Shown here: piece by piece, positions 3,760 through 58,452 of the stretch
Numbering within the stretch: position 1 is the first letter of the stretch
Layout of the letters: each line of letters starts with the position of its first letter
NCBI GenBank assembly: GCA_034087725.1
Contig: JAXDXW010000071.1
Span: 1-58,452 of the forward strand
DNA: 58,452 nucleotides
Direction of reading: 5' to 3'
Source of the DNA: Candidatus Onthovivens sp.
GTDB lineage: Bacteria; Bacillota_I; Bacilli_A; RFN20; CAG-826
Position numbers and translations under genes: made by a program
Notes under the pieces: generated by a model
What the model was told of the DNA's origin: nothing
Database searches by the model: none
What the model saw: only the letters and a program-made list of their open reading frames with translations

Positions 3760-5212
3760 CTTGAGAGGTTGCTTCAATTTTGTTCTTCTTTCTATCTGTA
3801 TATAGATGTTTATAAAGGATGAAGAAAATTACTATTAGGGCGCCTCCACCAACCATCAAATATGCTGATGTTATGCTAAAGCCATAATAATCTGCAGACG
3901 TTCTAAGAGGTTCTAAAATTACTCGCGTAAAGCCATACCAAATAAGGTATCCTCCAGCTAACGTGCCATCAGCATGGTATTTATCGGCTTTAATGATAGG
4001 ATTATTTTTCTCTTTTGAGAATAAATTTATAAACTTAATAAAATATTTAGAGAAGAAACCTGTTCCAAATCCGTAATAAAGGATAAAATAACCAATTAAA
4101 TTAGTAACTGATTCGATGAAAAATAATGGAAGATAAATTTGATCAGCAGGCAAACTAGTAGAACCATGCTCTGCAAAATGCATGTTATTTTTAATAAAAG
4201 TTGGTAAGAATGAAAAATAGGAAACAGGGACAGGGTATCCATTTACTTCATTATTAAAGAAATTTCCCCATCTACCGATTGCTTGTGCAATTAAAATTGT
4301 AGGAATAATAAAATCGACGAGATGTAAATAATTTATATTTCTATATTCTTTACGTTTCAGACCGTATTTCAAAACAAGCATAGTTGAGACACCTGCGATT
4401 ATACCCAAAATCGCGCCTCCCATAATTCCTAATCCACCAGCTTTAAAATCAAATATCTTAGTCCAATCTTGAACATATTGAGAAGAAGCTCCTGAAGCAC
4501 TTATATCTAAAACGACATACCATAGTCGTGCTCCAATGATTCCTGCTGGAAAAGCTATTAAGAAACAAGTGTATAAAAGTCCATGATAGTGATAAAACTT
4601 ATAGCAGAAATGATCACAAATAAATAGAACCAATATTGCTCCACTTAAGATAAAAAGCGCATATAAAGCAATATTTAAACCACCTAAATTTCCTGTATTC
4701 CTAACTAATATAATTCCTTCTTTTCCTATATGTATGGTATTTGCTAATGGATAGGATAAATATGGTGCATTACCTTCACTAAAAACAATAAAAGAGACTG
4801 CGAAAACAACAGTTGATATAATCCAGGTTGCTTTAAATATTTTTCTAATCTTTAAATCTTCCAAAGGAAGGTAATAACAAAAGAAAAAATTATATATTGC
4901 AGAAAATAACGAAATAACAAAGATAATTCCAAAGAAATAAGTATAAAACTGATGTATAGGTTTGACAGTCAAATTATTCTCTTTAAGCAAATTAATTGTT
5001 GCTTCATCTATATAGAAAGCAACATTTAAAAGTATGAAACCAATCAAAAATAAAACAGTTGCAATAATACAAAAAAGTCCGTATTTTTTGAATAAACCTT
5101 GCAGATCTAAGGTTTTTTTCTTTTTATTCATGAAACCAATTGTTAAAAATAATCCAATGATTCCTAAAATAAAAAACGATAATCCAAAATAATAAGCTAC
5201 ATCATGTGTCAT
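3752..5212 (-). CDS. lgt: Prolipoprotein diacylglyceryl transferase with long N-terminal membrane extension
   Basis: Lgt motifs GARLWYV, GGLGIMGG, AQAIGRWGNFFNNE and YGFTRVILEPLR. About 170 extra N-terminal residues with several TM segments. Confidence 0.9.
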   Translation of the reverse strand: MTHDVAYYFGLSFFILGIIGLFLTIGFMNKKKKTLDLQGLFKKYGLFCIIATVLFLIGFILLNVAFYIDEATINLLKENNLTVKPIHQFYTYFFGIIFVISLFSAIYNFFFCYYLPLEDLKIRKIFKATWIISTVVFAVSFIVFSEGNAPYLSYPLANTIHIGKEGIILVRNTGNLGGLNIALYALFILSGAILVLFICDHFCYKFYHYHGLLYTCFLIAFPAGIIGARLWYVVLDISASGASSQYVQDWTKIFDFKAGGLGIMGGAILGIIAGVSTMLVLKYGLKRKEYRNINYLHLVDFIIPTILIAQAIGRWGNFFNNEVNGYPVPVSYFSFLPTFIKNNMHFAEHGSTSLPADQIYLPLFFIESVTNLIGYFILYYGFGTGFFSKYFIKFINLFSKEKNNPIIKADKYHADGTLAGGYLIWYGFTRVILEPLRTSADYYGFSITSAYLMVGGGALIVIFFILYKHLYTDRKKNKIEATSQDA

Positions 5213-12000: not shown

Positions 12001-12634
12001 TAAGAGCTCTTGCTCTAAATTCCTCGACTTTTTCTCTATTCAAAAGCTTTTCCCATTCTTCATCAGCAACGAATTCAACATTTTGAATTTCGTGACTTGT
12101 TCTAAAACCATCGAAGAAATGGCAAATTGGATAGCTTGCTTCAATCGAAATTAAATGAGCAACTGGAGTTAAATCAGCTACTTCTTGAACAGAATGTGAG
12201 CAAAGCATTGCGATTCCTGTTTGTCTTATAGCATAGACATCTTGATGATCACCAAAAATAGAAAGTGAACGAGTTGCTAAGCTTCTTGCACTAACATGCA
12301 TAACAGCTGGTAAAAGTTCACCACACCATTTATAAATGTTAGGAATCATTAATAATAATCCTTGGCTAGCTGTATAAGTTGTAGCTAAAGAACCACCTTG
12401 TAAAGCTCCGTGAAGTGCTCCACTTGCGCCTGCTTCACTTTGCATTTCACATACTTTTACAACATTTCCAAAAAAGTTCTTTTTACCTTTGCTTGCGTAT
12501 TGATCAACATAATCAGCCATTGGGCTTGAAGGTGTAATAGGATAAATAGCAGCTACTTCTGTAAAATTATAACTACCAATAGCAGCAGCTGTATTACCAT
12601 CAACACTAAGCATTGTTTTCTTAACGTCTGACAT
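9062..12634 (-). CDS. nifJ: Pyruvate:ferredoxin (flavodoxin) oxidoreductase, single-chain
   Basis: Motifs YPITPSS, EMQSEAGA, 2x[4Fe-4S] CLQCNQC/CVGCGLC, GACAGCGE and GGDGWSYDIG. Start set at ATG 12634 (AAGGAGA RBS). Confidence 0.97.
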   Translation of the reverse strand: MSDVKKTMLSVDGNTAAAIGSYNFTEVAAIYPITPSSPMADYVDQYASKGKKNFFGNVVKVCEMQSEAGASGALHGALQGGSLATTYTASQGLLLMIPNIYKWCGELLPAVMHVSARSLATRSLSIFGDHQDVYAIRQTGIAMLCSHSVQEVADLTPVAHLISIEASYPICHFFDGFRTSHEIQNVEFVADEEWEKLLNREKVEEFRARALNPHTHPVTRGGAENDDIYFQGREAQNEHFNKVIDIADKYFKEATRLTGRTYAPFVYVGDPEATKVIIAMGSVTETALEVVNDLTSKGEKVGLVKVHLYRPFSAKHLASVIPSTVKEIAVLDRTKEMGAVGEPLYEDVVTALTLTGRTDIKVIGGRYGLSSKDTQPKHIKAVYDVMLSGKEFHNFTVGIIDDVTHLSLPVDDSYEIAHTYTSCLFYGLGSDGTVGANKSSIKIIGDATHQYAQAYFAYDSRKSGGVTRSHLRFGKEPIHSTYYVEHADFISCSLDTYVFRFDMLKNLKKGGTFLLNTDMDDETLIKSLPNRVKNQLASKGAKFYVIDANKIALEIGMGRHTNTILQSAFFYLNPQIMPYEEANKWMKKLAEKTYSKKGQEIVELNWKAIDKGTEGLREVKVDPEWTKLPVVRERTSIGDEYFDSYVDHVNTLDGNDIPVSKFTEFELLDGTMEENITYKEQRSIADRVPEWNKANCLQCNQCAFVCPHATIRPFLLTDEELAKGPAGLKDAVTPAKGPSVAGMHFVIQVSPKNCVGCGLCASECLANKAAKAKGLGADKYALKMVEAKSQFDKEEFATYLYKHTEYKTDKFPTTTVKGVGFLMPYMEVSGACAGCGETPYYRLLSQLFGKDMLVANATGCSSIYSGSTPLTPFVTDKNGNGVAWANSLFEDNAEYGYGMRLATNYKLMQICRILEAALASETVEDELKETIKTYLANIKNKDTARKIIPTLVEQVKASKDESVKEVLDFERDLLDKSVWIIGGDGWSYDIGYGGLDHVLASEDDVNVMVLDTEVYSNTGGQSSKSSQTGSIAQFTASGKKTRKKNLALMAMSYGTVYVAQVALGANPMKAIQAFKEAESYNGPSLIICYAPCINQGIKGGLVNSIATEKEAVECGYFTTFRYDPRKLEQGKPALELDCKEPDFTKFREFLLKETRYSQLPKVNPEHFEELFEKCEQSAKDRWERIKKFGA

Positions 12635-12794
12635 TTTAAATCTCCTTTTTTCAAACAAAATTATTATATAATTTTAAACTAATGAATTAAATAAGGAATT
12701 TATGTTTAAAACATAAAATTTTCCGTCTAAAACGACACAAAATATAATATTATTGTTGAAAAACATATCAACTTTTTATAAGATAATTGAGCAT

Positions 12795-19874: not shown

Positions 19875-21317
19875 TTATTTACGAATAATTTTACTCTTTA
19901 TTTTTAAGCATAAAACTTTGCATTCAGGAAAATACATAAAGATAGTTAATACTGACACTAAACATAAATACACAAAAAATGAAATTAGATTACTTTGAAT
20001 CAAAATCATTAAATAAAAAATTGATAAAACTAGGATGATGTATATCAATCTTCTTATAAATTTTGATTTAAAATGCCTAGATAATATAAAATCATTTAGA
20101 CAATACCAAACAATGATAACAACTACTGAGGCAATCGAAATTGAAATAGGATCTTTGTAAATAAAATATCCGATAGAATTCGCAATAGCAGAAAATACTA
20201 GAATTATCCCGTTAACAATCGAGTAAGTTTTAACCATGTTAAAAGTCTTATAGTAATTAGACATTATCAAAGTAATTGGAGCTTGCAAAACAAGAATTGG
20301 AAATACTACTTGAAAATACTTAAATGAGGCTATGTATTGAGGTAAAATCCACTCAATTAGCCAAAAGAAAATGTAGTATGCGCATAAACAAAACGAAGCT
20401 AAAATCATCATTCCAGCACATAGCTTATCGTAATTTACCTTCGCACTCTCTAATGTCTCTTCTTGTTTCAAAGATGGATAAAGTACTGTCGAAACAGCAC
20501 CTAGTGCGGTGGTAAAAAGATTAATCATTTGGTAAGCAAAAGCATAATCAGCATATATTTCAGTTGCAAATAAATTAGAAACAAACAATCTATCCATTTC
20601 TAAAATATATGTACAAATTAAATTACCTATTAAAAGAGGAAATCCTATTTTAAATAATTCAAAAATTTCTTTTTTGTTTTCTTTAAAACTAAGAGCTTTA
20701 CCAAAAGAAATAGAACGATATGTATAAACATACCAAAAGAAAATAACATATATAATAGCAATTGAAATCAAAACAAATATCACATAATGATTTAACGAAT
20801 CGCCAACATTTCCCCATTTAGCTAAAGCAAATAAAGCAATAATAGGTATTATAGTTAATACTGATCGGACAATTGTTCTACTCGAAATTTCGTTAAAACG
20901 ACCAGTAGCTTGCGAGATGTATTGATAAAAAGTTGTAATATTTGTCCCAAATACTGAAATAGCAACGGCAGCAAAAATAAAGAAATAATCAGTTCCTAAT
21001 CCAATCAAAGACAATAATAGAACAATTAATGTAATTACTATTTCTACAAAACTTATAAATCTAAAATATAACCTAAATCTTTCCTTATCTAAGTCTTCAA
21101 ACCTTTTACCGCCATATTTTAATAGTATTCCATCGATAAATCCAAAATGAAAAAGACCTACAAAACCATAATATAGAGTAAACATTTTGTAGTATCCATA
21201 GTTTCCTTTATCAATAATCATTGGTATTATAAAACCAACAATTATACCTGCTAAAATGCTGCAAATATTACTAAAAGCAACCTTTAAAACATTTAAAAAT
21301 ATAACTTTTGTTTTCAT
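19875..21317 (-). CDS. Oligosaccharide flippase (Wzx/MOP superfamily)
   Basis: About 480 aa with many TM helices and the Wzx-like YGYYKMFTLY..F.GLFHFGFIDGI. ATGA overlap with rfbB. Confidence 0.8.
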   Translation of the reverse strand: MKTKVIFLNVLKVAFSNICSILAGIIVGFIIPMIIDKGNYGYYKMFTLYYGFVGLFHFGFIDGILLKYGGKRFEDLDKERFRLYFRFISFVEIVITLIVLLLSLIGLGTDYFFIFAAVAISVFGTNITTFYQYISQATGRFNEISSRTIVRSVLTIIPIIALFALAKWGNVGDSLNHYVIFVLISIAIIYVIFFWYVYTYRSISFGKALSFKENKKEIFELFKIGFPLLIGNLICTYILEMDRLFVSNLFATEIYADYAFAYQMINLFTTALGAVSTVLYPSLKQEETLESAKVNYDKLCAGMMILASFCLCAYYIFFWLIEWILPQYIASFKYFQVVFPILVLQAPITLIMSNYYKTFNMVKTYSIVNGIILVFSAIANSIGYFIYKDPISISIASVVVIIVWYCLNDFILSRHFKSKFIRRLIYIILVLSIFYLMILIQSNLISFFVYLCLVSVLTIFMYFPECKVLCLKIKSKIIRK

Positions 21318-22339
21318 CAATTATTACTGTAATGTTTTTCTATCCGTTTAAGATACTCTCCGCTTTCAACATGTTCGAGCCATTCTTGATGCTCTAAATT
21401 CCACTTAATTGTCACTTCAATTCCTGTATCAAAATTATGTTTAGGCTTCCAACCAAGTTCTTTTTCAATCTTAGTAGGGTCCATAGCATATCGTAAATCG
21501 TGTCCAGGTCTATCTTTAACATATGTAATTAAAGATTCTGGCTTTCCGAGAGTTTTTAAAATAGTTTTTACTACTTCTAAATTAGTTCTTTCGTTATGAC
21601 CACCAATATTATAAACCTCTCCGTCTCTTCCGTTTCTAACAATTAAATCAATGGCATCACAATGATCTTCAACATATAGCCAATCTCTAACATTTTCTCC
21701 AGTACCATAAACAGGTAAATTTTCATTTCTTAATGCCTTTTGAATCATTAAAGGAATTAATTTTTCAGGAAAATGATATGGCCCATAATTATTTGAACAT
21801 CTTGAAATTGTTACAGGTAAATTAAAAGTTCGATGATAAGACAAAACCAAGAGATCCGCACTAGCTTTTGAAGCACTATAAGGGGATGAAGTATGAATTG
21901 GGGTATCTTCGGTAAAAAATAAGTCTGGTCTATCAAGAGGCAAATCACCATAAACTTCATCTGTACTAACTTGGTGATATCTTTTAATGCCATATTTACG
22001 ACAAGCGTCCATTAAAACTTGTGTTCCTAAAATATTAGTTTGAAGGAATACTTCAGGATTTTCTATACTTCTATCAACGTGACTTTCAGCTGCAAAATTA
22101 ATTACATAATCAAACTTTTCTTTTTCAAATAACTTGAATACAGCCTCTTTGTTACAAATATTTTCATGAACGAAAATAAAATTAGGCTTGTTCATAATTG
22201 GTTCTAGCGTTTCTAAATTGCCAGCATAAGTAAGTGCATCAATACAGACATATTCATCATTTGGATATCTATTAACCATCATTTGTAAAAAATTACCACC
22301 AATAAATCCAGCACCGCCGGTTACTAAAAATTTTGCCAT
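21317..22339 (-). CDS. rfbB: dTDP-glucose 4,6-dehydratase
   Basis: Motifs TGGAGFIG, NFAAESHVDRS, STDEVYG, YSASK, NNYGPYHFPEKLIP and DRPGHDLRY. C-terminal CGG (21344-21346) sits at the usual Trp of EYxKWIExxY. Confidence 0.97.
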   Translation of the reverse strand: MAKFLVTGGAGFIGGNFLQMMVNRYPNDEYVCIDALTYAGNLETLEPIMNKPNFIFVHENICNKEAVFKLFEKEKFDYVINFAAESHVDRSIENPEVFLQTNILGTQVLMDACRKYGIKRYHQVSTDEVYGDLPLDRPDLFFTEDTPIHTSSPYSASKASADLLVLSYHRTFNLPVTISRCSNNYGPYHFPEKLIPLMIQKALRNENLPVYGTGENVRDWLYVEDHCDAIDLIVRNGRDGEVYNIGGHNERTNLEVVKTILKTLGKPESLITYVKDRPGHDLRYAMDPTKIEKELGWKPKHNFDTGIEVTIKWNLEHQEWLEHVESGEYLKRIEKHYSNN

Positions 22340-39554: not shown

Positions 39555-39725
39555 TTATAAAAATCGTCTCTAAGGACGATTTTATAACCGTGGTACCACC
39601 TTAATTTACTTCAATTGTTGAAGTACACTTTTAAAATTTTAAATAAAAGATGTGAGACTCTAAGTTGCTTAACTGATTTTCACCATCCATCAGCTCTCTT
39701 AATAAGCAGTTTTTAGATTAATCAT
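39555..39725 (-). promoter_or_regulatory. T-box riboswitch (Leu) upstream of leuS
   Basis: Minus strand carries the stem I AGAGAGCTGA...GGTGAAAATCAG, a candidate specifier CTC at 39654-39656, the T-box AAGGTGGTACCACG and a terminator AAAATCGTC...GACGATTTT. Confidence 0.88.
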
Positions 39726-39775: not shown

Positions 39776-41212
39776 TTAAACTCGTAATAATTTTGAAAAC
39801 AAATCAAGATAAGAGTGAGCAGTTTTTGCCCATCTATTATCGGTTTTCATTGCATTTTTGCGCAAAGTAGTCATCGTTTTACCCTTTTTAGCATATGTAA
39901 TAAGAGTTAAAGCAACACATTTAACACCTTCAATCACACTATAATTGTAGAAGCCAAAACCATTTGCTGTCTTTGCGTTTTTCCCATTATAGCAATTTAC
40001 AGTATCCTTTAATCCACCAGTTAATCGAACAAGAGGTAATGTTCCATATCTTTGAGCAACAAGTTGTCCAATACCACAAGGCTCAAATTTTGAAGGCATA
40101 ATAAAGAAATCGCAAGAAGCATAAATTTTGTGAGCTAAACTTTCATCATAGCCAAGCTGAATAAAGACATTTTCAGGGTAATCATTTTTTAATTTCCTAA
40201 AGCTATCTTCAGCCCATCTTTCTCCAGAGCCTAAAAGTACAAAACATCCGCCCTCATTTACTACAAAATCAGCCATTGCAGTGAGCACATCAATCCCTTT
40301 TTGATCTGTTAAACGACTACATACACCAAAAAGAGGTTTTTTTGCATCTAAATTATGTTCTTTACAAAAAGCAACTTTATTCCTCTTCTTTCCTGCATCT
40401 ACATTTTCACTACCGTAGTTATAATAAATACATTTATCGGTTTTTGGATTGAAAAATTCGTAATCTATTCCGTTTACAAAACCATAGAAATCATCTTTTC
40501 TTAAAACTAAATCGTAATCTAATCCTTTTGATCCTTCCTTTGTTAAAAGTTCTTGAGCATGTGTTGGTGAAACAGTAGTAATTTTATCAGAATAAACTAT
40601 TCCTGCTTTCAAAGTAGAAACTTTACCTTCAAGTCTTACTTTTCCGTTATTATAAATATCGGCATTTAAGTTATATAAATCAAATAAAGCACTGCTATCT
40701 AAGAACCCCTTAAATAAAGGATTGTGAATAGTTAAAACTGTCTTAATATGGCCTAAAGTTAAATGATCTTTGTATTTTACTTTTAAAAGACAAGGAATCA
40801 TACCTGTTTGATGATCATGAACATGACAAATATCTACTTTAAAAGGCATAATTTTTAAGAGTTCAACTGCAGCATTACAGAAAAATGCGAATCTTTCTCC
40901 GTCATCAAAGTAACCATAATAGTTGTCTCTATTAAAGTATTGATCGTCTTTAATTAAAAAATAATCTATTTTTTTATATAAAGTGTGATAAACTTCACAA
41001 TTAATTTCTCGCCAATTCATGACCACTTTAAAATGGGCTACTTTAGAAATTTTCTTAAAAAAGCTTGTATTCCCGTTTTTATAAAATGGAGTAATTATCG
41101 CAACATTATCTTTATTCTTTATAAATTCTTTACTTAATGAAAAGATAACATCACCTAAGCCACCAGTTTTTGAAAACGGTAAACACTCACTTGTAATTTG
41201 AACGATATTCAT
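39776..41212 (-). CDS. glgA: Glycogen synthase
   Basis: Motifs KTGGLGDV, HVHDHQT, RLTDQKG and EPCGIGQL. Start at ATG 41212. Confidence 0.96.
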   Translation of the reverse strand: MNIVQITSECLPFSKTGGLGDVIFSLSKEFIKNKDNVAIITPFYKNGNTSFFKKISKVAHFKVVMNWREINCEVYHTLYKKIDYFLIKDDQYFNRDNYYGYFDDGERFAFFCNAAVELLKIMPFKVDICHVHDHQTGMIPCLLKVKYKDHLTLGHIKTVLTIHNPLFKGFLDSSALFDLYNLNADIYNNGKVRLEGKVSTLKAGIVYSDKITTVSPTHAQELLTKEGSKGLDYDLVLRKDDFYGFVNGIDYEFFNPKTDKCIYYNYGSENVDAGKKRNKVAFCKEHNLDAKKPLFGVCSRLTDQKGIDVLTAMADFVVNEGGCFVLLGSGERWAEDSFRKLKNDYPENVFIQLGYDESLAHKIYASCDFFIMPSKFEPCGIGQLVAQRYGTLPLVRLTGGLKDTVNCYNGKNAKTANGFGFYNYSVIEGVKCVALTLITYAKKGKTMTTLRKNAMKTDNRWAKTAHSYLDLFSKLLRV

Positions 41213-41213
41213 A

Positions 41214-42329
41214 TTAAATCTTTGCTCCTTGAGGTATATATATTGGATTGCAATCGTCATTAATCAAATCTTTATTTTCGATTTTGCAATGCTTATCTAT
41301 AACAACATTTTTTATTTTAACGCCCTTTTTAATAATTGTATCTGTAAAAATAATGGAATTTTCTACTTCAGCCCCCTCTTCAACGATAACATTTCTGGCT
41401 AAAATTGAATGAGTAACTTTTCCATCTATAGAACATCCGTTGGCTAAAACAGAATTAGAAACTTCCGCATCACATCCATAAATAATAGGGCGAGAATTAT
41501 GGCTAGTTGTGTGATATGTCCAATCATCAATGAATAAACTTGTCTTAAATTTTTCAGTGTCTAAAAGTTCAAAAGAAAAATCGACGTACTCTTTTAATGA
41601 TGAGAAATATCGACAGTATCCATCGTATTTTATTGCATGAACCTTATTCTCGTAATTAGCAATGTAATGAACTAAATCCTTAAGAGAAAATAAAGAAGAA
41701 ATTGAATCTACTCTTTTTAAAAGATCTCTTAAATAAGAGGCGCTAATTACATATGTTTCTAAAGAAATATTGGCATTATTTCTACTACCGTCATTAGTAG
41801 TAAATTTTTGAATGTTACCTAAAACATCAACAGTAATCTTATCACACCCTAAAAATCTAGTATCAGCGTGCGAAGTTTCTCGATAAACAACACTAACAAG
41901 TTTTTGCGATTGAATGTGTTGTTCAATGATACTATTAAAATCAATTCGATATACAAATTGAACCGGAACAATTACGATATATTTTGCATCGTTATCATAT
42001 AAAAACCAGTCATTTTCTTTAATATTGTTTATATCTGTGTTAAATGTTGGATTTGTTAAACCATATTCATTTATAAATAAAGATTGAAAACCCGTTTTTG
42101 GATTTTTTAAATATGTAGATTCATAACCTAGATGTTTAAAAATAGATCTAGAATGATCTTTTACTAAAATTCCAATATTATCAATCCCACTATTTGTTAA
42201 GTTTGATAAAGCAAAGTCAATAAAAGTATATCTGCCTAAAAAAGTTGTAGAAGCTAAAGGACGTTGTTTAGTTAATTCACCAAGATCCGTAGAGTTATGC
42301 AAATTTACAAGAGCAATTACATCTTTCAT
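41214..42329 (-). CDS. glgD: Glucose-1-phosphate adenylyltransferase subunit GlgD
   Basis: RPLASTTFLGRYTFIDFALSN with no GGxGxRL loop; left-handed beta-helix tail; follows glgC. Confidence 0.9.
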   Translation of the reverse strand: MKDVIALVNLHNSTDLGELTKQRPLASTTFLGRYTFIDFALSNLTNSGIDNIGILVKDHSRSIFKHLGYESTYLKNPKTGFQSLFINEYGLTNPTFNTDINNIKENDWFLYDNDAKYIVIVPVQFVYRIDFNSIIEQHIQSQKLVSVVYRETSHADTRFLGCDKITVDVLGNIQKFTTNDGSRNNANISLETYVISASYLRDLLKRVDSISSLFSLKDLVHYIANYENKVHAIKYDGYCRYFSSLKEYVDFSFELLDTEKFKTSLFIDDWTYHTTSHNSRPIIYGCDAEVSNSVLANGCSIDGKVTHSILARNVIVEEGAEVENSIIFTDTIIKKGVKIKNVVIDKHCKIENKDLINDDCNPIYIPQGAKI

Positions 42330-43462
42330 AGTGATAGATTCCTTTCATAATCAATTAAAATTATTTTTTCGCTGTCTTTATTAATTTCTTCGCCTGCTTT
42401 TATAATTGTCTTCGGACCGATAATTGCGTTATTTACAAAAGCATTCTCTTCTATGATAACTCCAGGCATTAAAACAGAATTTATAACAACTGCTCCTTCT
42501 TTTACAACAACTTCATTTGAGACTACACAGCTTTGCAAGGAGCCGAAAATTCTTGCACCTTGATTAATTAAACAATCTTTAACCTTTGCAGAAGGTCCAA
42601 TAAATTGTGGAAGTGAATGCGTATCTTCGCTAAAAACACTTGGATATTCGCTAAATTTAATTGTATCTTTTGTTCGTCTAGAAGGTAAAAGTTCCATATT
42701 TGCCATATGTAAACTGTCTACTGTTCCAACATCTCTCCAATATCCTTTAAATCTATACGCATAGATTTTTTTATTAATATCAAGCAAATAAGGGATAATA
42801 TCTTTTCCAAAATCATGCGAACTATTTGGATTTTTAGCATCTAAAACAAGCGCTTTTCTTAAATCTTTGTATGTGAAGATATAAACACCCATCGAAGCTA
42901 AATTTGATTTTGGCACTTTTGGTTTTTCTACGAATTTTGTAATTCGATCATGCGAATCGACCTCTAAAATACCGAATCTAGAAGCTTCTTTAATATCAAC
43001 TTCTAAAACAGAAATTGTACAAGCAGCTCCACTTTTAATGTGAAGTTCAAGCATTTCATTGTAAGTAGATTTATAAATATGATCACCGCTTAGAATAAGA
43101 ACATATTCCGGATCTTCTTCATCTAAAAAGTCAATATTTTGATAAATTGCATCAGCTGTGCCGTTATACCAAGATGCTCCTTCCTCTGTTTGGCGAGGAG
43201 GAAGAGCCACACATTTGCCACCGACACCATTAAAACCCCGCTTTTCTCCATTACCTATATAATTATTTAAAGCTACGGATTCATATTGAGTTAACACGCC
43301 GCAGGAATCAATGCCCGTATTTGCAACATTAGACAATGAAAAATCAATAATACGATATTTACCACCAAAGTAAACAGCTGGTTTTGCAATTTTTTTAGTA
43401 AGTGCATGAAGTCGTGTGCCCTTGCCTCCTGCTAAAATCATCGCAACACATTTTTTCGACAT
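42326..43462 (-). CDS. glgC: Glucose-1-phosphate adenylyltransferase
   Basis: Motifs LAGGKGTRL, AKPAVYFGG, GTADA, LSGDHIY and GYWRDVGT. CGG at 43238-43240 matches the conserved Trp of the GxxW motif. Confidence 0.97.
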   Translation of the reverse strand: MSKKCVAMILAGGKGTRLHALTKKIAKPAVYFGGKYRIIDFSLSNVANTGIDSCGVLTQYESVALNNYIGNGEKRGFNGVGGKCVALPPRQTEEGASWYNGTADAIYQNIDFLDEEDPEYVLILSGDHIYKSTYNEMLELHIKSGAACTISVLEVDIKEASRFGILEVDSHDRITKFVEKPKVPKSNLASMGVYIFTYKDLRKALVLDAKNPNSSHDFGKDIIPYLLDINKKIYAYRFKGYWRDVGTVDSLHMANMELLPSRRTKDTIKFSEYPSVFSEDTHSLPQFIGPSAKVKDCLINQGARIFGSLQSCVVSNEVVVKEGAVVINSVLMPGVIIEENAFVNNAIIGPKTIIKAGEEINKDSEKIILIDYERNLSL

Positions 43463-43473
43463 ACAAGCTCCCC

Positions 43474-46400
43474 TTAATCAACAGTTGTATATAACAAAAC
43501 GTGGCTAGCGTTTTTATCTCTACTTACAAGTAACGTTTCATCAACTAACTCAGAAATATCGCCAATTTTTTCAGGTGGGGTTGAAAGAATAACTTGTAAA
43601 TGAAATTTGCGCAATAATTTAACCGCTTCTATAATTCTTTCGCGGTCCATTTTTGAAAATGCTTCATCAAAAATAATTAATCTAATTGTATTGGAAATTT
43701 CGCCTTCATCATAAACATGATAAAGTTGTGCAAAGGAAGCTAAAACAGAAATATAGAAAGGTGTTTGAGTTTCGCCTCCAGATTTTTTCTTAATCATTTT
43801 TGAAAGTCTTTGTTCTTCATTTGTTAATTTATTTTTAACTATTAAGTCAAAATCTAAATAGCTTCTATAATCAGTAAATTTTTCAATATTATTCACAAGA
43901 ACTGATGATTTTTCACTAGAACCTATATCAACAATTTGTCTAAATAAATCTTCCATTACATCTTTGTATTTTTCAATAAAGGCTACATCGTTATCAGAAT
44001 CTAAAATTAAATCGTCTTTAAGCATGTCATAATACCTACGATATACAATTGAAGGCTTAACTGTAAATCTATACAAATCTGTACCAAAAGAAGATTCCTC
44101 TAACGCAAGGTTTAAATTATTTATTTGATCTTCAACATCTTCAATAGCGCTTCTCAATTTAAAAATAAAGTCGTCTTTAAATTGCTTTGTAGCCTTTTCA
44201 TAACTATCTTGAATTTTTTCTTTATATTCAGGAAGTTTAACATCTCTAAATTCTTTTAATTCTTCACTAAATCTAGTGTTATCGATTGTTTCACAATCAT
44301 ATCCAAGATGATAATCACGACAATAGTCTCTACGAGACTTAGTTAATTGAGAAAAAACATTTCCTAAAATGTATTGACCTCTAACAAGGGTCGTATTTGT
44401 TTCATTAAATATTACTAAATAAGTTTTCCCTTCTTTAAGTAAATTATTTAAATAAGGTTCACATTTATCGATGATAAACTCAGATTCATAATTATTAAGT
44501 AAAGATTTCTCTTTTTCTTTAATTTTAACTTCCTCGTTTTTAATTTTATCCTTCTTTAAATTAGCAATTTCATTCGTTAAATTACCTTTTTCTAGCATTA
44601 AAGAATCATTATTTGCCTTAATATCGTCAATGTCTTCTTCAATTGCACGAATTCTTTTATCAATCGAATCAAGTAAAGCTGTGTCGTGCTCTTTTAATTC
44701 TTCTTCAATATAAGTTAATGATTTTTCAAGTCCTGGAAGCTCGCTAATTTTAGATATACTTTCTAAAATAGAACTAATTTCGTTACTATTGATAACTTCT
44801 AAATTATTAGCTTCAGTAATAATCGAAGATAATTGTTTGAAAATTCCTAAATTTCCTAAATTGAGTTGCAATTCTTTACTCTTCTCTTGAATAAATCTAG
44901 CATCTAAACTTCGACCTATAAAAGACATCTGATAAGAGCGAGGATTGATGCGAGAAAGAGCGAAATTTCTATATAAATCGCACTCTTTTGTTATACCATT
45001 TCCTGAATTTCTTGCTTCTTCAATAGTTGCAGATTTATGAAGTCTGCCAATTAAGAAATTAGTATAAGCCCTTGCTCCTTCATGATCCGTTAAAATTTCT
45101 GTAGCAAGAGAATCTTCTTCTGCTTCAAAGTCTCTATTAATGATTTTTTCTTGATCAACTAAACTAGTACCGTAATATTTATATTCATCAAGTAAATGCT
45201 TCAAAATTTTATAAGCTTCTATGTAGTATTTAGGTGCAACAAACAAATTAAATTTTTGTGCTACAAGATAGCCTTCTATAGCGTTTGACCAACTCAAATC
45301 GTGAATATCAACTAAATCAGCGTATATTTCTACAGGAATATCTTTACCAAATTTATCTTTTAAAGAATTTTGAAGTTTATTTTTAATACTAACTAGACGA
45401 TAATCATAAGCTTTTTCACCATGCTTAATATTTTTTTCTTCTTCCCTCAATGCGGCAATCTTTTTTTCAGTTTGCGAAATACTTCTAGCTAAAGATGTAG
45501 CAAGTGAAGATACATTATTTTTAAATAAAGACAATTCTCTCCTGAAATTAAATAATTTCTCTTCGTTTAAAGACAAAATATCTGTCTGATATTCATTTTT
45601 AAATTCATTAATTGAGGAAATCAATGAGTTCGCACTATCCTCGAGTTCAGTTAATTCAGTTAATCTATCTTCTTCTAAAACATCTTTAGAAAAAACAGAA
45701 AGAGATGAAGAAATGCTTTTTGAAGCTTTTAAAAACCCATCACAGTATGCGTTTAAATTGATACTAATTTGATTATTTTTGCTTTTAATATTACCAATTT
45801 TTTCAATAATCTGATCTTTCTCTTCAGTTAACTCTTGTGTTAATTTAGCGGCATCATTATTTGCACGATCACTAATCAAGGAAATTTTCTTGTTTTCTAA
45901 TTCTGATAAATCTACCTTATTATCAGCTATATCCTCATCAATTTGTGCTAACCTATTTTCGGCTTTTAATACTTCGTTTTTTAAAATGTTTAACTTTTCT
46001 TTAGACATTTCAAGCTCACATCTTTCAATTGTATAGCGAGAAATATCTACACCCTCTTTAGTATTTAAATAAACTTGATAATTTTGCTCAATTTCCTCTA
46101 AAGAAGAGATTCGAGTTTGAAGTCTTTCGGCTTCGTTTTCAAGTCGTTTATATTGCAAAATATTATCTTGTAAAGAATCGAGCTCAATATTTTGTTGAGG
46201 ATCACAAACATACTCCGTAATAAAGGTAGTTATGTCTGTAATTGGAGTAAAAGATGAAGCTTTCTTAAGGAGACTAAAATACTTATCCTTTAAACCACCA
46301 AATTTCTTTTTCAAAAATTCTTGATACTGTCTATTTGAATCGAAAAATGTGAATTTTCCATAATAATTTTCATTTAAAAATTTATATAGAGTTTTATATT

Positions 46401-46839
46401 CCATCGGATAATTGTCTAATATAAATTCATTTTGAGGTATTTTATCTTCTAAGCAGAAAAAATGATGTTCTTCACTCCCGTCAACAAAAGTATCGAAAAC
46501 AATGCCCATTGTAAAATAGTTTTCATGAATATCGTCAAAAAATTCAAGAGCTATGTAAGATGTAAAGCGACCTTTTCTTAAATACTTAAAATCACCATCA
46601 GCAGTATCTCCAATTTCACCACTTAAATAGCTTTTTAAGGTTCTAGCTGATTTATCCATTGCGGCCTTATTGAAAAATCTACCTGTCGTATCGCCTAAAA
46701 GAACTAATGAAAGAGCGTCAATTAATGTTGATTTACCACTAGCATTTTTACCTGTTAAAAATACTATTTGTTTAAAATCAATGGTTTGATTCCAAAAATA
46801 ATGCCAATTTATAATTTTTGCTTTAGTTAGCGATTTCAT
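43474..46839 (-). CDS. SMC-like ATPase, Wadjet JetC / MksB type
   Basis: INWHYF, Walker A GKNASGKST, long coiled coils, signature SGGETQ and Walker B IIFDEAF. Start at ATG 46839 (AAGGAG RBS), overlapping the upstream stop. Confidence 0.88.
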   Translation of the reverse strand: MKSLTKAKIINWHYFWNQTIDFKQIVFLTGKNASGKSTLIDALSLVLLGDTTGRFFNKAAMDKSARTLKSYLSGEIGDTADGDFKYLRKGRFTSYIALEFFDDIHENYFTMGIVFDTFVDGSEEHHFFCLEDKIPQNEFILDNYPMEYKTLYKFLNENYYGKFTFFDSNRQYQEFLKKKFGGLKDKYFSLLKKASSFTPITDITTFITEYVCDPQQNIELDSLQDNILQYKRLENEAERLQTRISSLEEIEQNYQVYLNTKEGVDISRYTIERCELEMSKEKLNILKNEVLKAENRLAQIDEDIADNKVDLSELENKKISLISDRANNDAAKLTQELTEEKDQIIEKIGNIKSKNNQISINLNAYCDGFLKASKSISSSLSVFSKDVLEEDRLTELTELEDSANSLISSINEFKNEYQTDILSLNEEKLFNFRRELSLFKNNVSSLATSLARSISQTEKKIAALREEEKNIKHGEKAYDYRLVSIKNKLQNSLKDKFGKDIPVEIYADLVDIHDLSWSNAIEGYLVAQKFNLFVAPKYYIEAYKILKHLLDEYKYYGTSLVDQEKIINRDFEAEEDSLATEILTDHEGARAYTNFLIGRLHKSATIEEARNSGNGITKECDLYRNFALSRINPRSYQMSFIGRSLDARFIQEKSKELQLNLGNLGIFKQLSSIITEANNLEVINSNEISSILESISKISELPGLEKSLTYIEEELKEHDTALLDSIDKRIRAIEEDIDDIKANNDSLMLEKGNLTNEIANLKKDKIKNEEVKIKEKEKSLLNNYESEFIIDKCEPYLNNLLKEGKTYLVIFNETNTTLVRGQYILGNVFSQLTKSRRDYCRDYHLGYDCETIDNTRFSEELKEFRDVKLPEYKEKIQDSYEKATKQFKDDFIFKLRSAIEDVEDQINNLNLALEESSFGTDLYRFTVKPSIVYRRYYDMLKDDLILDSDNDVAFIEKYKDVMEDLFRQIVDIGSSEKSSVLVNNIEKFTDYRSYLDFDLIVKNKLTNEEQRLSKMIKKKSGGETQTPFYISVLASFAQLYHVYDEGEISNTIRLIIFDEAFSKMDRERIIEAVKLLRKFHLQVILSTPPEKIGDISELVDETLLVSRDKNASHVLLYTTVD

Positions 46840-47461
46840 CGATTTCGTTCTCCTTTCCATTAATTTCGTCTAATAAATTGCTTAAGGCAACAATCTTATC
46901 ATTATTTAAAGCGTAGACAATACTTGGAAGTATATAAAATGTTACATTCCCTTCATCATAAGAGCCACTAACTTTAGAAATAATATTACGGCTTGCTAAA
47001 AATCTTAAAGAACGTGCAATACCTCTTCCGTTTAATTTTTTGCCTGGCATATAAATTCCGTGATCAACCATCTCTTTAATTAATGTAGGAGTTGTCATAA
47101 AAATTGATTGCGAAACAGAATTAGATTCGCTTTTTTCGTTTTCATAAATTAATCTTAAAGCAAACAAAACTAAGCTTGTTTCTCTATCAATTTTCAATCT
47201 GTTTTCAGTAAAATCGTTGCTCAAAGCGATTACTCCTAAAATGTTATCCTTTTCAATATGCCAACCAGAAAATTTCAAATATCCTTCAAAAATATCAAAA
47301 TATCTTTCTAAAAATCGATAATCAGGATTTACTCTCATTATTTTTTCTTTCGGATCAAATATATCGCGAACAATAAAGCCTTTTAATAATAATTTATTGC
47401 ACACGCTTGCGAATGTATTTTGATCACTAGATGATAATTTTATAAACTCTTCAGTAAACAT
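46823..47461 (-). CDS. DUF4194-like KITE subunit (Wadjet JetB / MksE type)
   Basis: 212 aa with tandem winged-helix-like pattern (NPDYRFLERYFDIFEGYLKFSGWHI...SLVLFALRLIYE...ILPSI); lies between the kleisin and SMC genes. Confidence 0.78.
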   Translation of the reverse strand: MFTEEFIKLSSSDQNTFASVCNKLLLKGFIVRDIFDPKEKIMRVNPDYRFLERYFDIFEGYLKFSGWHIEKDNILGVIALSNDFTENRLKIDRETSLVLFALRLIYENEKSESNSVSQSIFMTTPTLIKEMVDHGIYMPGKKLNGRGIARSLRFLASRNIISKVSGSYDEGNVTFYILPSIVYALNNDKIVALSNLLDEINGKENEIDEIAN

Positions 47462-47463
47462 AA

Positions 47464-48900
47464 TTAATTCTCCTTAACTGTAAAAAGAAAATGTGGGACA
47501 AGAAAACGATTATTAATAATTTTTTGATCATCGATGACTTCTACATTGTAAAAACATTTAGAATCGTCTTTTTTCACTGTTGCAAAAATTAAGCAAATAA
47601 AAGCCTCAAAATTAATTAAAGGCATATCTTCAACTCTTAATGTCTTTTCATCACCAAAACATTCCTTCATAAATTCGTAAATTTTTTCGTCAGTATAAAC
47701 ACTTCGCGTTGATTCTAAGAAATCGCGCATAATCTCTTCGTTTGCAATATCAAAATCAATAATTTGTAGAGGCATTCCATCTTCTTTTAATCTACGTAAA
47801 ATAGGGAAAGTTATGGACTCACTATCAACATACCCCTGCTCATAAAAATATATAGAATCTTGCATTTTAGAGAGAAGTTTTCGCAAAAAACTAGGATCAT
47901 TTAAATTTTTTGTATAATTTTTAAATATATTTTCTAAGTGTCCTTTTATTGTTCTATCAGTGTTGTTTAAATATAAAATTTTGTTCGTAGAAGACTTTGT
48001 ATAATTATTGTTTTCTTTATCAATACTTGAAATTAATGAATTTAAAGATGAATAAGTATCAGTTATGTAATTAATTTTTGTAATAATCTCGTTTTCTAAA
48101 TCTTCTTTTGAAATAGTATTTGAAATTAATGCGGCTTGAGATATTAATTTTAAGCGAATTTCTTTAGATGATAACCACTTATCAAGAATCTGAATAATAG
48201 GTCTTTTAAATCTTACAACAGAATCAAATGTTTTAAGAGGATGATAATAACGATCGCTAATTTTTTCTTTGTAAATATCAAAAAAATCGTATAAAACATC
48301 ATTTGTATCAAACATTTTTCCTAATTTATTTTGGAAAATATGTATTGAATTCAAAAGAGTGATAAGTTCTACTTTCAGCTTCTTTGTATTTTCATAACAG
48401 CGATGTAAAGTTACAAACATCAATTCGTCTTGTTCTTCGTCTTCTAATTTTAATTCAGAGTAGGTAGAATGAACCAAGCTTAAATAAGGTGATTCTTCAT
48501 CACTTATAATATCTTTAAAGGCTTTCAAAATTGAAATTGTAAAAGGAGGAAGAATGATTGTTTCTTCAAAATTTTCTGGATTCATTGAAATGCTTATCCA
48601 ACCAGTTTCTTCTAATCTTCTTACGATAAAGCTAGCTTTAGTCGACAAATTATCCACGATATAATTTTCGTCCAAACTATCTTCTTCTAAAGATAAATCG
48701 AGTTGCTCTAGTTCTTCTTTACCTTTTTCTTTTAAAGCTTTAATAAAATCATTTTTGTTAATTATTGACTCATCTTGCTCTACTAAGTTAAATAAAATAA
48801 GCACGGCATCAGCAAATATTCCTCTATTTTTACTGTTAAATATAGAGAAATATTTTTCTGGTAAAATCTGAAATAAATTCACTATAGTTTCCTCGTTCAA
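47464..48900 (-). CDS. Kleisin-like subunit (Wadjet JetA / MksF type, DUF5716-like)
   Basis: 478 aa, TTG start; LFQILPEKYFSIFNSKN and RRLEETGWI are typical of Firmicute JetA; first gene of the trio. Confidence 0.72.
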   Translation of the reverse strand: MNEETIVNLFQILPEKYFSIFNSKNRGIFADAVLILFNLVEQDESIINKNDFIKALKEKGKEELEQLDLSLEEDSLDENYIVDNLSTKASFIVRRLEETGWISISMNPENFEETIILPPFTISILKAFKDIISDEESPYLSLVHSTYSELKLEDEEQDELMFVTLHRCYENTKKLKVELITLLNSIHIFQNKLGKMFDTNDVLYDFFDIYKEKISDRYYHPLKTFDSVVRFKRPIIQILDKWLSSKEIRLKLISQAALISNTISKEDLENEIITKINYITDTYSSLNSLISSIDKENNNYTKSSTNKILYLNNTDRTIKGHLENIFKNYTKNLNDPSFLRKLLSKMQDSIYFYEQGYVDSESITFPILRRLKEDGMPLQIIDFDIANEEIMRDFLESTRSVYTDEKIYEFMKECFGDEKTLRVEDMPLINFEAFICLIFATVKKDDSKCFYNVEVIDDQKIINNRFLVPHFLFTVKEN

Positions 48901-49008
48901 CTAAAAAGTATTTTATCATAAAGCATGCTCTAACTCATTAAAAAAATCTATTTTAAAATAAATATTTTAAAAGTAGCAAATATTTACTCATAATTCTATA
49001 ATTTAACT

Positions 49009-49494
49009 ATGACTGAAAAAAGACTATATCCCGCAAAAGGTCCACTTCTAAAAACATACAGCATTATCTCTTTAATATTACTATTAATTGCCTATTTAGC
49101 TTTCGGTTCAAGATTCATGTATGCAAACAAAACTCACGATGAATTAATGTCTATGCTAGGTGGAGATTTTTTAATTTTATGCATCCGGATAATTTTAAAC
49201 ATTATTGCAGTTTTTGTTTTACTAAAAAGAAATTATTATGAAATTTCTAAAAACGCAATTACACACATTAAATTAGGCGTTTCAACAACATATAATTTTT
49301 CAGATATCATTTATATTGATGAAAGTTATTCAAAAAAAGAAAAAACAATCCTTTTTTATTTAAAAGATGGCAAAGAAATATATTTAATTAATGATAAGGA
49401 AAAAATAATCTCGGCAACTTTAAAAGAAAACTGTAAAAATCTTCTTTCAAGGTCTCAATTCATAACTAAATATAAATCAAAAAATCCTATATAA
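49009..49494 (+). CDS. Hypothetical membrane protein (2 TM plus PH-like C-terminal domain)
   Basis: 161-aa ORF with two hydrophobic helices; in-frame CGG (49186-49188) inside TM2. Confidence 0.65.
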   Translation: MTEKRLYPAKGPLLKTYSIISLILLLIAYLAFGSRFMYANKTHDELMSMLGGDFLILCIRIILNIIAVFVLLKRNYYEISKNAITHIKLGVSTTYNFSDIIYIDESYSKKEKTILFYLKDGKEIYLINDKEKIISATLKENCKNLLSRSQFITKYKSKNPI

Positions 49495-55532: not shown

Positions 55533-55820
55533 TAGGGAGTCCGGACATTTTTTCGTACCATTTTAGAGGCTGACTCTAGAACAATATTCAGTTGGACTTA
55601 AATATCCTAACCTTTCATTTATTCTCTTTGTTTTAAACCAAGTTAAATACTTGTCTAATTCTTTTATGAACTCTTCTCTTATAACATTGTTCCAGTCATG
55701 ATTATGGAAGAATTCTCTTTTTAATATTCCGAAGAATCCTTCACATGCTGCATTATCTGGAGAATATCCTTTTCTAGACATAAATCTTCTATACCGTATT
55801 CTTCCATTATGTATCATCTA
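55533..55820 (-). mobile_element. IS3-family (IS150-like) transposase 3' fragment with probable right end
   Basis: MSRKGYSPDNAACEGFFGILKREFF...RINERLGYLSPTEY is the integrase-core C-terminus. A GC-rich end (TAGGGAGTCCGGAC) abuts the AbiEi remnant. Confidence 0.85.
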
Positions 55821-55871
55821 AGTTTTAAGATACAATTCACACTAAATTAAATAACTTCTTATTGAGTGTGT

Positions 55872-55896
55872 ACTTATCAAATCACGATTTATCGAG
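55872..55896 (+). repeat. hsdS cassette junction repeat, copy 1 (ACTTATCAAATCACGATTTATCGAG)
   Basis: 25-bp direct repeat with 56371-56395 (1 mismatch); encodes LIKSRF[IV]E; followed by an AGGAGG RBS. Confidence 0.85.
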
Positions 55897-55910
55897 CAGG
55901 AGGATAGATT

Positions 55911-56717
55911 ATGTTAATAAATGAATTATTTGATTTTTTGCCAAAATCTAATCGACCAACTTCTTTTGAAAAAGTTACAGGGAAATATCCATTTTTCAAT
56001 TCTACCAATACAATAGATAAATTTGTTGATCAACCAGATTATTCTGGTGAATTTTTGATTATAGGTGATGGAGGCGCCGGTAATTGTAAATATTATAATG
56101 GCGAGTTTTCAGCAACTGATCATACATATCTATTAAAGCTAAAAGAAGGCGTAAATTGTAAACTAATCAAATATTTTCTAGAAAAAGACAATTTTAAAAT
56201 ATTAAACGATGGATTTAAGGGTGTAGGAATTAAAAACGTTAGTAAATCATATATTCAAAACATTGATTTTAAGAAAAACGGAAATTTTCAGACAAAGAAA
56301 TACTATTTTCGTTAGATTCCATTAATACTTTAATAAGTCAGAATAAAAAACAACTAAAATTATTAGATGAACTTATCAAATCACGATTTGTCGAGATGTT
56401 CGGTGATGTTTTAAAAAAATGATAAGGGATTTGATACCTGCTTATTTGGTGATTATGTAAATCAAATGAACATTGGCCCTTTTGGTAGTGATTTAAAAAA
56501 AGATTGCTTTGTCTCAAAAGAAAATGGTTATTGTATGGTTTATGAACAAAAACACGCAATTGATAAAGATATGACTGTTGAAGCAAGGCATGTTACAAAA
56601 GAAAAATATGAAAAAATGAAGAGATTTGATATTGGGCCTGGTGACATAATAGTTAGCTGTAGAGGAACAATAGGTGAGTGTTTTATTCTTCCGAGTGATG
56701 CGGCGCCTCATGTTTGA
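55911..56717 (+). pseudogene. hsdS: Type I restriction-modification specificity subunit (HsdS), frameshifted and truncated
   Basis: TRD1 (GKYPFF...IIGDGG...SATDHTY...GVGIKNVSK), conserved spacer LDELIKSRFVEMFGD, and TRD2 (GPFGSDL...GDIIVSCRGTIG). Frameshifts near 56290-56305 and in an A7 run near 56415. Confidence 0.85.
56371..56395 (+). repeat. hsdS cassette junction repeat, copy 2
   Basis: ACTTATCAAATCACGATTTGTCGAG. Confidence 0.85.
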
Positions 56718-56967: not shown

Positions 56968-57044
56968 TGGTCGGGGCGACTGGATTTGAACCAGCGGCCT
57001 TCAGTTCCCAAAACTGACGCGATACCAAGCTACGCTACGCCCCG
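56968..57044 (-). tRNA. tRNA-Pro (UGG)
   Basis: Acceptor stem CGGGGCG/CGCCCCG, anticodon arm TCAGT-ttTGGga-ACTGA, TTCAAAT T-loop, ACCA end. Confidence 0.96.
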
Positions 57045-57249: not shown

Positions 57250-58452
57250 TCATAGCTCTAAGTCTCCAAAAGAAGATGAATAGTCTACTTTATCAGAAAA
57301 TGTTGGCAGAGCTTTTTCTACAAAAGTAAATGTTGTTTTGCCTTTTCCGATCGTATTGACTTTCAACAGTGCTTGAACATCATAATTTTCTCTAGTTATA
57401 TATGCTACAGGGATAAATTCTCTATTTAATTTAATTTTTATAGCTAATTGATTATATATTGGCAATGCAGATTGCTTAGCAATCGAAGGTGCTCCATCAA
57501 AATTAGTTGTAGTGTACATGTATTTTGCGTGATTATAAGAAGCATTAGCATCTAAAACAATCGTCAAATAATAAAAATTATCTATTAATTCAAGCTGATT
57601 ATTAAATGTTTCATTATCGATAGTCACTTTTTCATCAACAACATATGAATTATAAAAAAGATAATCGATCGGGTCAAAAGGATAAGATCCAAACTTCAAT
57701 ATAAAATCTTTTTTGTCGTATTTTTTTCCACTATTTTCATCAAAATGTGCAATATCGACTGATGGGACATTTTCCTTTCCGCTAGTTATAAAATAATTAA
57801 TGCTACCAGGCTCAGAATACATTCTCTCTGCCATTTGAATGTTGTTACTAAAAGTAATGTTTTCTTTAAAATACCCTAAGGAGTTTTTATATGTTGTCGT
57901 ATTGGTGTGCTGAAGATTTGAAAATGTTATGGAATTAGCGAAATTATAGCCTTTTGAAACATAAGCAGTAATAGAACTTAATCTAGAGAAACTGATTCTT
58001 GCTAAAGACCCATAACCAAATTTATTGATGACTTCTTCCTTTGAAAAATCGATGCTAGTAATATCTTTCCCTTCTATATATGAATTAAATTCATCAATTG
58101 CATAATCAACAGAATTTCCTTCCTTAATAAAACTACAAAACACGCTATTTTTAAGAAAAAGCGTCTTAAACTCAAATATTTTTTTTAAATTTAGGCTAAC
58201 GTAGTACTCTTCATTAATAACAATTGAATCCAAAATATAACCTTCATTAGCTCTTGGATAAATAGAAACATAGAAATTTTTTAATTGCTTATTTTGACTA
58301 AGTGAGACACTTCCGTTAATGATGGAAGAATCTATTTCAATTGAGCAACCTGTTTTATTAGGGTCTCTTGGAACATAAAAAATTTCAACTAAATTCTCTC
58401 CTTCTTTTGCAGGGAATGAAAAATAATTGTCTGAATTAGTAAGATATTTCTT
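57250..58452 (-). CDS. Hypothetical protein, probably surface/secreted; 5' end outside the window
   Basis: The frame stays open from the window end to the stop at 57250, so the track start at 58233 is internal. PRANEGYILDSIVIN resembles InlB B-repeat-like domains. Confidence 0.6.
   Translation of the reverse strand, partial: KKYLTNSDNYFSFPAKEGENLVEIFYVPRDPNKTGCSIEIDSSIINGSVSLSQNKQLKNFYVSIYPRANEGYILDSIVINEEYYVSLNLKKIFEFKTLFLKNSVFCSFIKEGNSVDYAIDEFNSYIEGKDITSIDFSKEEVINKFGYGSLARISFSRLSSITAYVSKGYNFANSITFSNLQHTNTTTYKNSLGYFKENITFSNNIQMAERMYSEPGSINYFITSGKENVPSVDIAHFDENSGKKYDKKDFILKFGSYPFDPIDYLFYNSYVVDEKVTIDNETFNNQLELIDNFYYLTIVLDANASYNHAKYMYTTTNFDGAPSIAKQSALPIYNQLAIKIKLNREFIPVAYITRENYDVQALLKVNTIGKGKTTFTFVEKALPTFSDKVDYSSSFGDLEL

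Follow-up and report, generated by a model that had tools for sequence, protein, structure and literature searches.

Complexes of the JetABC type are dimer-of-motors SMC machines that extrude DNA, and the nuclease of the complete JetABCD (Wadjet) system cuts small circles after they have been completely extruded. SMC researchers have suggested that MukBEF and MksBEF originated as Wadjet defence systems, which lost the nuclease and were recruited for chromosome folding. To our knowledge, the known examples of such a nuclease loss are few and proteobacterial. Here we describe a jetABC operon (positions 43474–48900, minus strand) on a contig of 58,452 nucleotides from Candidatus Onthovivens sp. 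(JAXDXW010000071.1, assembly GCA_034087725.1); the whole stretch is called the window in the following. The operon has no linked jetD gene, it is embedded among housekeeping genes and its relatives occupy the same place in at least 149 species-level genomes. From these comparisons it appears that the locus is an independent, order-wide and JetD-less Wadjet derivative in Bacillota.

The closest described systems are the type I Wadjet systems JetABCD, for example those of Escherichia coli GF4-3, Pseudomonas aeruginosa PA14 and Bacillus cereus Q1. Their proteins belong to the same JetA1, JetB1 and JetC1 hidden Markov model families as the proteins of the window, and they agree in the order and tight coupling of the genes and in the sizes of the proteins. 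In contrast to these systems, the window locus lacks the JetD Toprim nuclease, is placed in a housekeeping operon and not in a defence or mobile-element context, and is transmitted strictly vertically throughout an order. The MksBEFG and EptABCD systems of Corynebacterium glutamicum and Mycobacterium smegmatis are complexes of the same type which require the nuclease MksG for plasmid control, whereas no such gene is linked to the window trio.

Two described complexes have a chromosomal role. MukBEF of E. coli and its relatives resembles the window trio in its Wadjet-like architecture and in its vertical inheritance within one order-level group, and serves as chromosomal condensin. However, MukBEF has demonstrably replaced Smc-ScpAB, which is less likely for the window trio given the losses of jetABC described below, and its sequence similarity to the window JetC is remote. 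MksBEF of P. aeruginosa PAO1 is likewise a kleisin–KITE–SMC trio without the nuclease MksG. The P. aeruginosa complex, which probably derives from JetABCD, organizes the chromosome (PMC10586767). Compared with MksBEF of PAO1, the locus described here would represent an independent event in Bacillota; it is found in about 150 species at one locus, it is fused to the glg operon, and in its basal members the slot of the nuclease is taken by a membrane protein. In addition, the function of the PAO1 complex is known from experiments, whereas we deduce that of the window trio. A literature search retrieved no description of a natural JetD-less Wadjet system in the taxa considered here.

An intact jetABC trio without JetD

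The three genes of the operon code for the type I Wadjet proteins JetA (kleisin), JetB (KITE dimer) and JetC (SMC ATPase), and all three are intact. The gene jetA (47464–48900, minus strand) encodes a kleisin-like subunit of 478 amino acids as called, with a TTG start codon, and matches the family JetA (JetA / DUF5716) of Pfam with 1.7e-84 and the PADLOC model JetA1 with 2.8e-116. The KITE or MukE-like subunit of 212 amino acids is encoded by jetB (46823–47461, minus strand) and is recognized as DUF4194 (2.3e-13) and JetB1 (2.4e-67). The SMC/MukB-like ABC ATPase encoded by jetC (43474–46860, minus strand; 1128 amino acids as called) reaches 1083 bits with the PADLOC model JetC1 and contains the Pfam domains AAA_29 and SbcC_Walker_B. 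The MukB N-terminal domain is found in JetC as a remote Pfam match (2.4e-4), and a search of solved structures gave a weak match to 8dk1_C (E = 1.7e-5).

The genes are tightly coupled, as the initial annotation had stated: jetA and jetB are spaced by 2 nucleotides, and jetB and jetC overlap by 38 nucleotides as called, or by 17 nucleotides if JetC begins at the invariant Met8. As all JetC homologues begin at this residue, Met8 (position 46839) is probably the true start. The ATPase motifs of JetC are intact with the Walker A motif GKNASGKST, the signature SGGE and the Walker B/D-loop IIFDEAFSKMD; the signature and the Walker B core FDEAFSKMD are invariant in all nine genomes aligned. The P-loop (46741–46749, residues 38–40) occurs in two forms, NASGKST, which the window shares with about half of the clade, and NGSGKST, found in the other members; both retain the consensus GxxxxGK[ST].

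The absence of an adjacent jetD, also noted in the initial annotation, held up in all searches of the window. Every open reading frame of at least 100 codons was compared with Pfam (E ≤ 1e-4), with the exception of the one at 3127–3777, which was compared with PADLOC only. No JetD family was matched in Pfam, and no PADLOC JetD model was matched by the open reading frames without a Pfam family or by the frame at 3127–3777. In tblastn searches with two real JetD proteins we found nothing at E < 1 in the window and nothing in 177 related loci.

Around each related locus 8–10 kb of flanking sequence were inspected, and a JetD was present in none of the 149 related genomes. A uniform re-annotation of 255 loci with blastp found JetD in two Clostridia controls alone. 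The junctions between jetC and glgC, which measure 11–51 bp, contain no remnant of a jetD gene. At atypical loci the open reading frames following jetC include those of ComFA/ComFC, GGDEF, radical SAM and GH3 proteins as well as three frames without any family; none of them matched a JetD family. The two controls, a member of the Caldicellulosiruptoraceae and one of another Clostridia lineage, have JetC proteins about 37–39% identical to the window JetC. Both of them possess JetD_C/JetD1 proteins of 420–439 amino acids whose genes overlap the end of jetC, and in one of the two loci an MqsRA toxin–antitoxin pair adjoins JetD. Thus, our search was able to detect JetD where it is present.

Conservation and inheritance of the locus

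The distribution of the operon was determined by a JetA scan over one genome per GTDB species, followed by two alignment-based scans from each of which the best 80 loci were taken. The first scan yielded seven metagenome-assembled genomes, with Candidatus Onthovivens and uncultured Mollicutes or Bacilli among their titles; all seven have the arrangement jetABC–glgCDA–leuS and no JetD nearby. Altogether, jetABC is present at the same locus in at least 149 species-level genomes of an uncultured radiation of low-GC gut Bacilli, which we take to be the GTDB order RFN20; the deduplicated set comprises 151 JetC loci including the two Clostridia controls. The record titles include Candidatus Onthovivens, Candidatus Enterosoma, Candidatus Scatoplasma, Coprobacillus sp. 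CAG:826, Clostridium sp. CAG:288 and CAG:568, and many UBA 'Bacillales'. Ten contigs with the Bacilli locus (L101, L102, L121, L122, L168, L169, L184, L204, L209 and L246) come from assemblies titled Slackia, Parabacteroides, Phocaeicola, Bacteroidaceae, Gemmiger, Azospirillum, Prevotella, Alistipes and Bacteroides; errors of binning or labelling in 'cleanbin' assemblies are the probable cause.

In the window, the ATG of glgC follows the TAA of jetC after 11 nucleotides, as had been annotated initially, and glgC, glgD and glgA (39776–43462, minus strand, assigned by Pfam) have the same orientation as jetABC and are followed by leuS. The junction (43463–43473, minus strand) contains the sequence GGGGAG, which we read as the ribosome-binding site of glgC, and a consensus scan of the junction detected nothing resembling a terminator. 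The genes glgCDA are probably co-transcribed with jetABC. Among the 137 loci with a downstream flank of 1.2 kb or more, about 120 have glgC(D)(A) after jetC, in some cases with one or two small intervening genes. In these loci the adjacency of jetABC and glg persists down to a JetC identity of about 36%. An adjacency of this kind is unusually stable for unrelated functions and suggests co-transcription or a functional coupling. In addition, the near-complete contigs measure 1.0–1.5 Mb, two of them 1.07–1.08 Mb, so that an operon of 5.4 kb is retained in small genomes. Large jetABC-bearing sequences include ERZ2606006 NODE_12 (1.08 Mb), Ga0183097_10006 (1.07 Mb), JAKVOO010000001.1 (1.48 Mb) and JBMNFL010000001.1 (1.01 Mb).

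The trio is inherited vertically under a constraint typical of housekeeping genes and is not in decay, since it diverges together with the Glg proteins and its ratios of nonsynonymous to synonymous substitution (dN/dS) are low. The pairwise distances of JetA and JetC correlate with the GlgC/GlgA distances with r = 0.89 and 0.87, and those of glgC and glgA correlate with each other with 0.89. In a Mantel test the correlation between Jet and Glg distances was reached in 0 of 999 permutations, and the rate ratio is about 1.1. For the closest pair of genomes dN/dS is 0.05, 0.04 and 0.09 for JetA, JetB and JetC, compared with 0.06, 0.08 and 0.10 for glgC, glgD and glgA; overall the values for jetABC range from 0.04 to 0.12. 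A disrupted frame of jetA, jetB or jetC was not seen in the loci examined. The distribution of jetABC is thus not a patchy one spread horizontally in defence or mobile contexts.

Six species (L011–L015 and L018) have glgCDA–leuS without jetABC upstream (at about 9400–10000 in each locus). The comparison involves orf161, the divergent gene on the upstream side of jetABC in the window (49009–49494, plus strand), which is separated from jetA by 108 bp. Its translation is a membrane protein of 161 amino acids with two hydrophobic helices as judged by eye, in agreement with the small membrane gene of the initial annotation, and has no Pfam family. In five of the six species, L015 being the exception, orf161 lies divergently about 100–130 bp from glgC, and it appears to mark the ancestral boundary of the jetABC locus. 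In a tree of GlgC, GlgD and GlgA, a neighbour-joining tree of this single locus, the six species fall inside the jetABC-bearing radiation with bootstraps of 95–100 out of 100, and L011–L014 cluster with the crown group of the window (92 out of 100). Among the nested relatives without jetABC are JBAZGG01, CASFSS01, CAYFSI01, CAVILR01, CAVEPD01 and CASDXP01. From the nesting we conclude that the presence of jetABC is ancestral, with no fewer than two clean losses.

A membrane protein at the JetD position of basal relatives

The deeper branches of the radiation and its sister lineages have a gene, which we call orfX, at the exact position of jetD (L139–L166, L170–L174 and L178–L245; e.g. L141:13434–14336 and L173:11594–12619). 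The deduced proteins of 280–380 amino acids have two transmembrane helices, as recognized by eye, after a short N-terminus, and their soluble domain measures about 200 amino acids. They evolve fast, and the members are homologous to each other (blastp 1e-7 to 1e-35) across lineages with JetC proteins about 37–45% identical, and two of them exceed the Pfam gathering score for DUF3137. The gene is always directly downstream of jetC, in 19 of 19 occurrences of the first set and in about 42 loci once the second scan is included, and it is absent from 80 glgC loci without jetABC. We regard orfX as a candidate for a fourth subunit or for a substitute of JetD.

No nuclease signature or known defence signature was found in orfX, and as no PADLOC model matched we rejected the assignment to a known defence protein. 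A relationship to orf161 was also rejected (hhalign probability 3.6%). One sister lineage has a further gene between jetC and orfX, coding for a multi-pass membrane protein of about 150 amino acids without family match (L169:13412–13885, L170:13427–13879 and L172:13406–13870). The window and its crown group have neither of the two genes and appear to have lost them. Because the basal lineages carry a membrane protein, it may be that the ancestral form of the complex was tethered to the membrane or regulated there. The suggestion of the initial annotation that the trio works with a different effector is therefore met by a candidate in the basal relatives, but not in the lineage of the window, which lacks orfX.

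Discussion

We suggest that jetABC codes for an anciently domesticated, nuclease-free complex of the MksBEF/MukBEF type that acts on host DNA, and we hold this with about equal measures of confidence and doubt. The domestication, which had been raised in the initial annotation, is favoured by the synteny and the vertical inheritance of the same locus across a very large clade; it is well supported from the evolutionary side and plausible from the functional side. The features of a nuclease-free condensin are found here, namely a trio without linked nuclease at a conserved, vertically inherited locus under purifying selection. As the ATPase is intact, no cutter is linked, the operon is a housekeeping one and the genes have long been retained in genomes of 1.0–1.5 Mb, the complex most likely loads on host DNA and organizes or compacts it.

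The following course of events appears plausible to us. The complex would have been fixed in the ancestor of the radiation, and JetD would have been lost or replaced then or earlier. The complex presumably still binds and hydrolyses ATP and may extrude or compact DNA like other JetABC/MukBEF dimers. Since the cutter is absent, it would act on the own chromosome as a condensin similar to MksBEF and MukBEF, in an accessory role more likely than as the sole condensin, the former role being favoured by the nested losses. The basal lineages would pair the complex with orfX in the position of JetD, whereas the crown lineage of the window would have dropped orfX and kept JetABC alone.

Two observations weigh against this proposal. 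The clean and nested losses imply that jetABC is dispensable and not essential everywhere. The presence of orfX in the JetD slot of the basal lineages could mean that the complex has a function other than chromosome folding. Metatranscriptomes from three pig-gut runs contained short spurious pieces alone and were uninformative.

It is possible, though we regard it as doubtful, that the complex still serves in defence against plasmids or phages, either free of a nuclease or with another effector. Like Smc5/6, it could compact or silence small circles; other possibilities are a joint action with orfX in the basal lineages and the use of an unlinked nuclease in the crown lineages. The closest characterized relatives are in fact anti-plasmid systems, orfX is confined to the position directly after jetC, and repeated loss is typical of defence genes. 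On the other hand, the locus is fixed and strictly vertical, has no defence-island context and shows no sign of transfer within the clade; furthermore, orfX shows neither a nuclease signature nor one known from defence and is missing in the window lineage.

A role as main condensin that has replaced Smc-ScpAB throughout the order, which would be a second replacement in the manner of MukBEF, is in our opinion unlikely. The order-wide retention in small genomes, the housekeeping operon and a purifying selection equal to that of the neighbouring genes would fit such a role. The nested lineages which lost jetABC cleanly are difficult to reconcile with it, and even highly reduced Mollicutes usually keep smc. 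Queries with Smc, ScpA and ScpB of Bacillus subtilis gave no phmmer match in the window or in 175 locus flanks, a result which says little. Among the open reading frames of at least 700 codons in the flanks of 79 loci none was SMC-like as judged from the first 80 residues, no family scan having been run. MukBEF provides a precedent for such a replacement (PMC10586767). Taken together, we consider the replacement of Smc-ScpAB somewhat disfavoured.

An elaborated form of this idea, to which we give little credence, is that jetABC–orfX, with the DUF3137-like membrane protein substituted for the JetD nuclease, is an undescribed, non-cutting SMC machine tethered to the membrane, which became the principal chromosome organizer of the small genomes in place of Smc-ScpAB and whose tether was later dropped in the lineage of the window. 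If this were true, it would be a second, independent takeover of the MukBEF type with its intermediate stages still alive.

It is improbable, and rather more so, that the locus belongs to a split canonical Wadjet system with jetD elsewhere in the genome and JetABCD still cutting plasmids. Such an arrangement has in its favour that the inspection for JetD covers 8–10 kb on each side. Nevertheless, jetD was near jetABC in none of the 149 genomes although it overlaps jetC in the canonical relatives, and the short junctions of jetC and glgC hold no remnant of it. Moreover, we know of no Wadjet split that has persisted throughout an order while JetC diverged down to about 36% identity. Finally, a decaying and functionless Wadjet remnant, as the missing JetD and the lineages without the trio might suggest, can practically be dismissed, because the selection data contradict it: dN/dS is low, the ATPase motifs are invariant and no disrupted frame was seen in the loci examined.

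If jetABC is indeed a domesticated complex acting on host DNA, the locus offers an independent and datable case in Bacillota with one insertion site and about 150 descendant species. The transition from defence to housekeeping becomes testable in this series, which comprises living intermediates whose nuclease slot is taken by a membrane protein, crown lineages that have JetABC only, and sister lineages with clean losses. For the annotation of genomes this means that defence-finder tools should not score JetABC of the gut Bacilli as an incomplete anti-plasmid system.

Other features of the window

A candidate for a sigma-70-like promoter of the jet operon (TTGCTA, a spacer of 18 nucleotides and TAAAAT; 48950–48979, minus strand) is located upstream of jetA by consensus match alone. 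Beyond orf161 the genes purB and purA follow, so that jetABC lies between purAB and glgCDA–leuS; that this is a housekeeping setting and not a defence island could be confirmed. Between glgA and leuS there is a terminator-like hairpin (39560–39583, minus strand) at the place where a T-box leader might be expected; at the gathering threshold of Rfam no T-box was found.

The GC content of the operon is 28–29%, the same as that of its surroundings, and the window is uniform at about 28–31%. The rest of the 58 kb is mostly housekeeping, with genes for pyruvate:ferredoxin oxidoreductase and uvrA, lgt, argS, infC, rplT, thiI, ezrA, tex and coaX. A few open reading frames without family match stand outside this content; the frames at 19875–21320 (minus strand, 481 amino acids) and 57250–58233 (minus strand, 327 amino acids) have neither a Pfam match at E ≤ 1e-4 nor a PADLOC match at E ≤ 0.01. 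Two candidates of suggestive size were rejected: the SMC-sized frame of 1198 codons at 9062–12658 is the pyruvate:ferredoxin oxidoreductase, and a gene pair at 33.5–34.9 kb coding for 254 and 219 amino acids, the sizes of ScpA and ScpB, encodes CoaX and an ECF transporter S component.

A 14-mer, AAAACCCTGCAAAA, is over-represented in the window with seven sites at no more than one mismatch against 0.08 expected (1795, 12970, 19839, 24499, 26047, 34247 and 55110). Five of the sites are intergenic and two are inside genes, and no obvious hairpin accompanies them. The initial annotation had noticed this over-representation, which stands, and had speculated about a loading or positioning site of the complex. 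Nothing ties the motif to JetABC: there is no site between 34.3 and 55.1 kb and none within about 6 kb of the jet operon.

The closest traces of mobility lie at 55.5–56.7 kb, about 6.7 kb from the operon and beyond purA, and consist of hsdS fragments and a fragment of an IS3-like transposase. In detail, the region 55563–56717 contains a C-terminal fragment of an IS3-family transposase (84 amino acids). Fragments of a gene for type I restriction specificity (HsdS) are also present, at least one and possibly two. These fragments adjoin a tRNA-Pro gene (56968–57044) and are the sole mobility or defence traces in the window. In L008 the equivalent region is occupied by a shufflon of the arrangement hsdS–integrase–hsdS.

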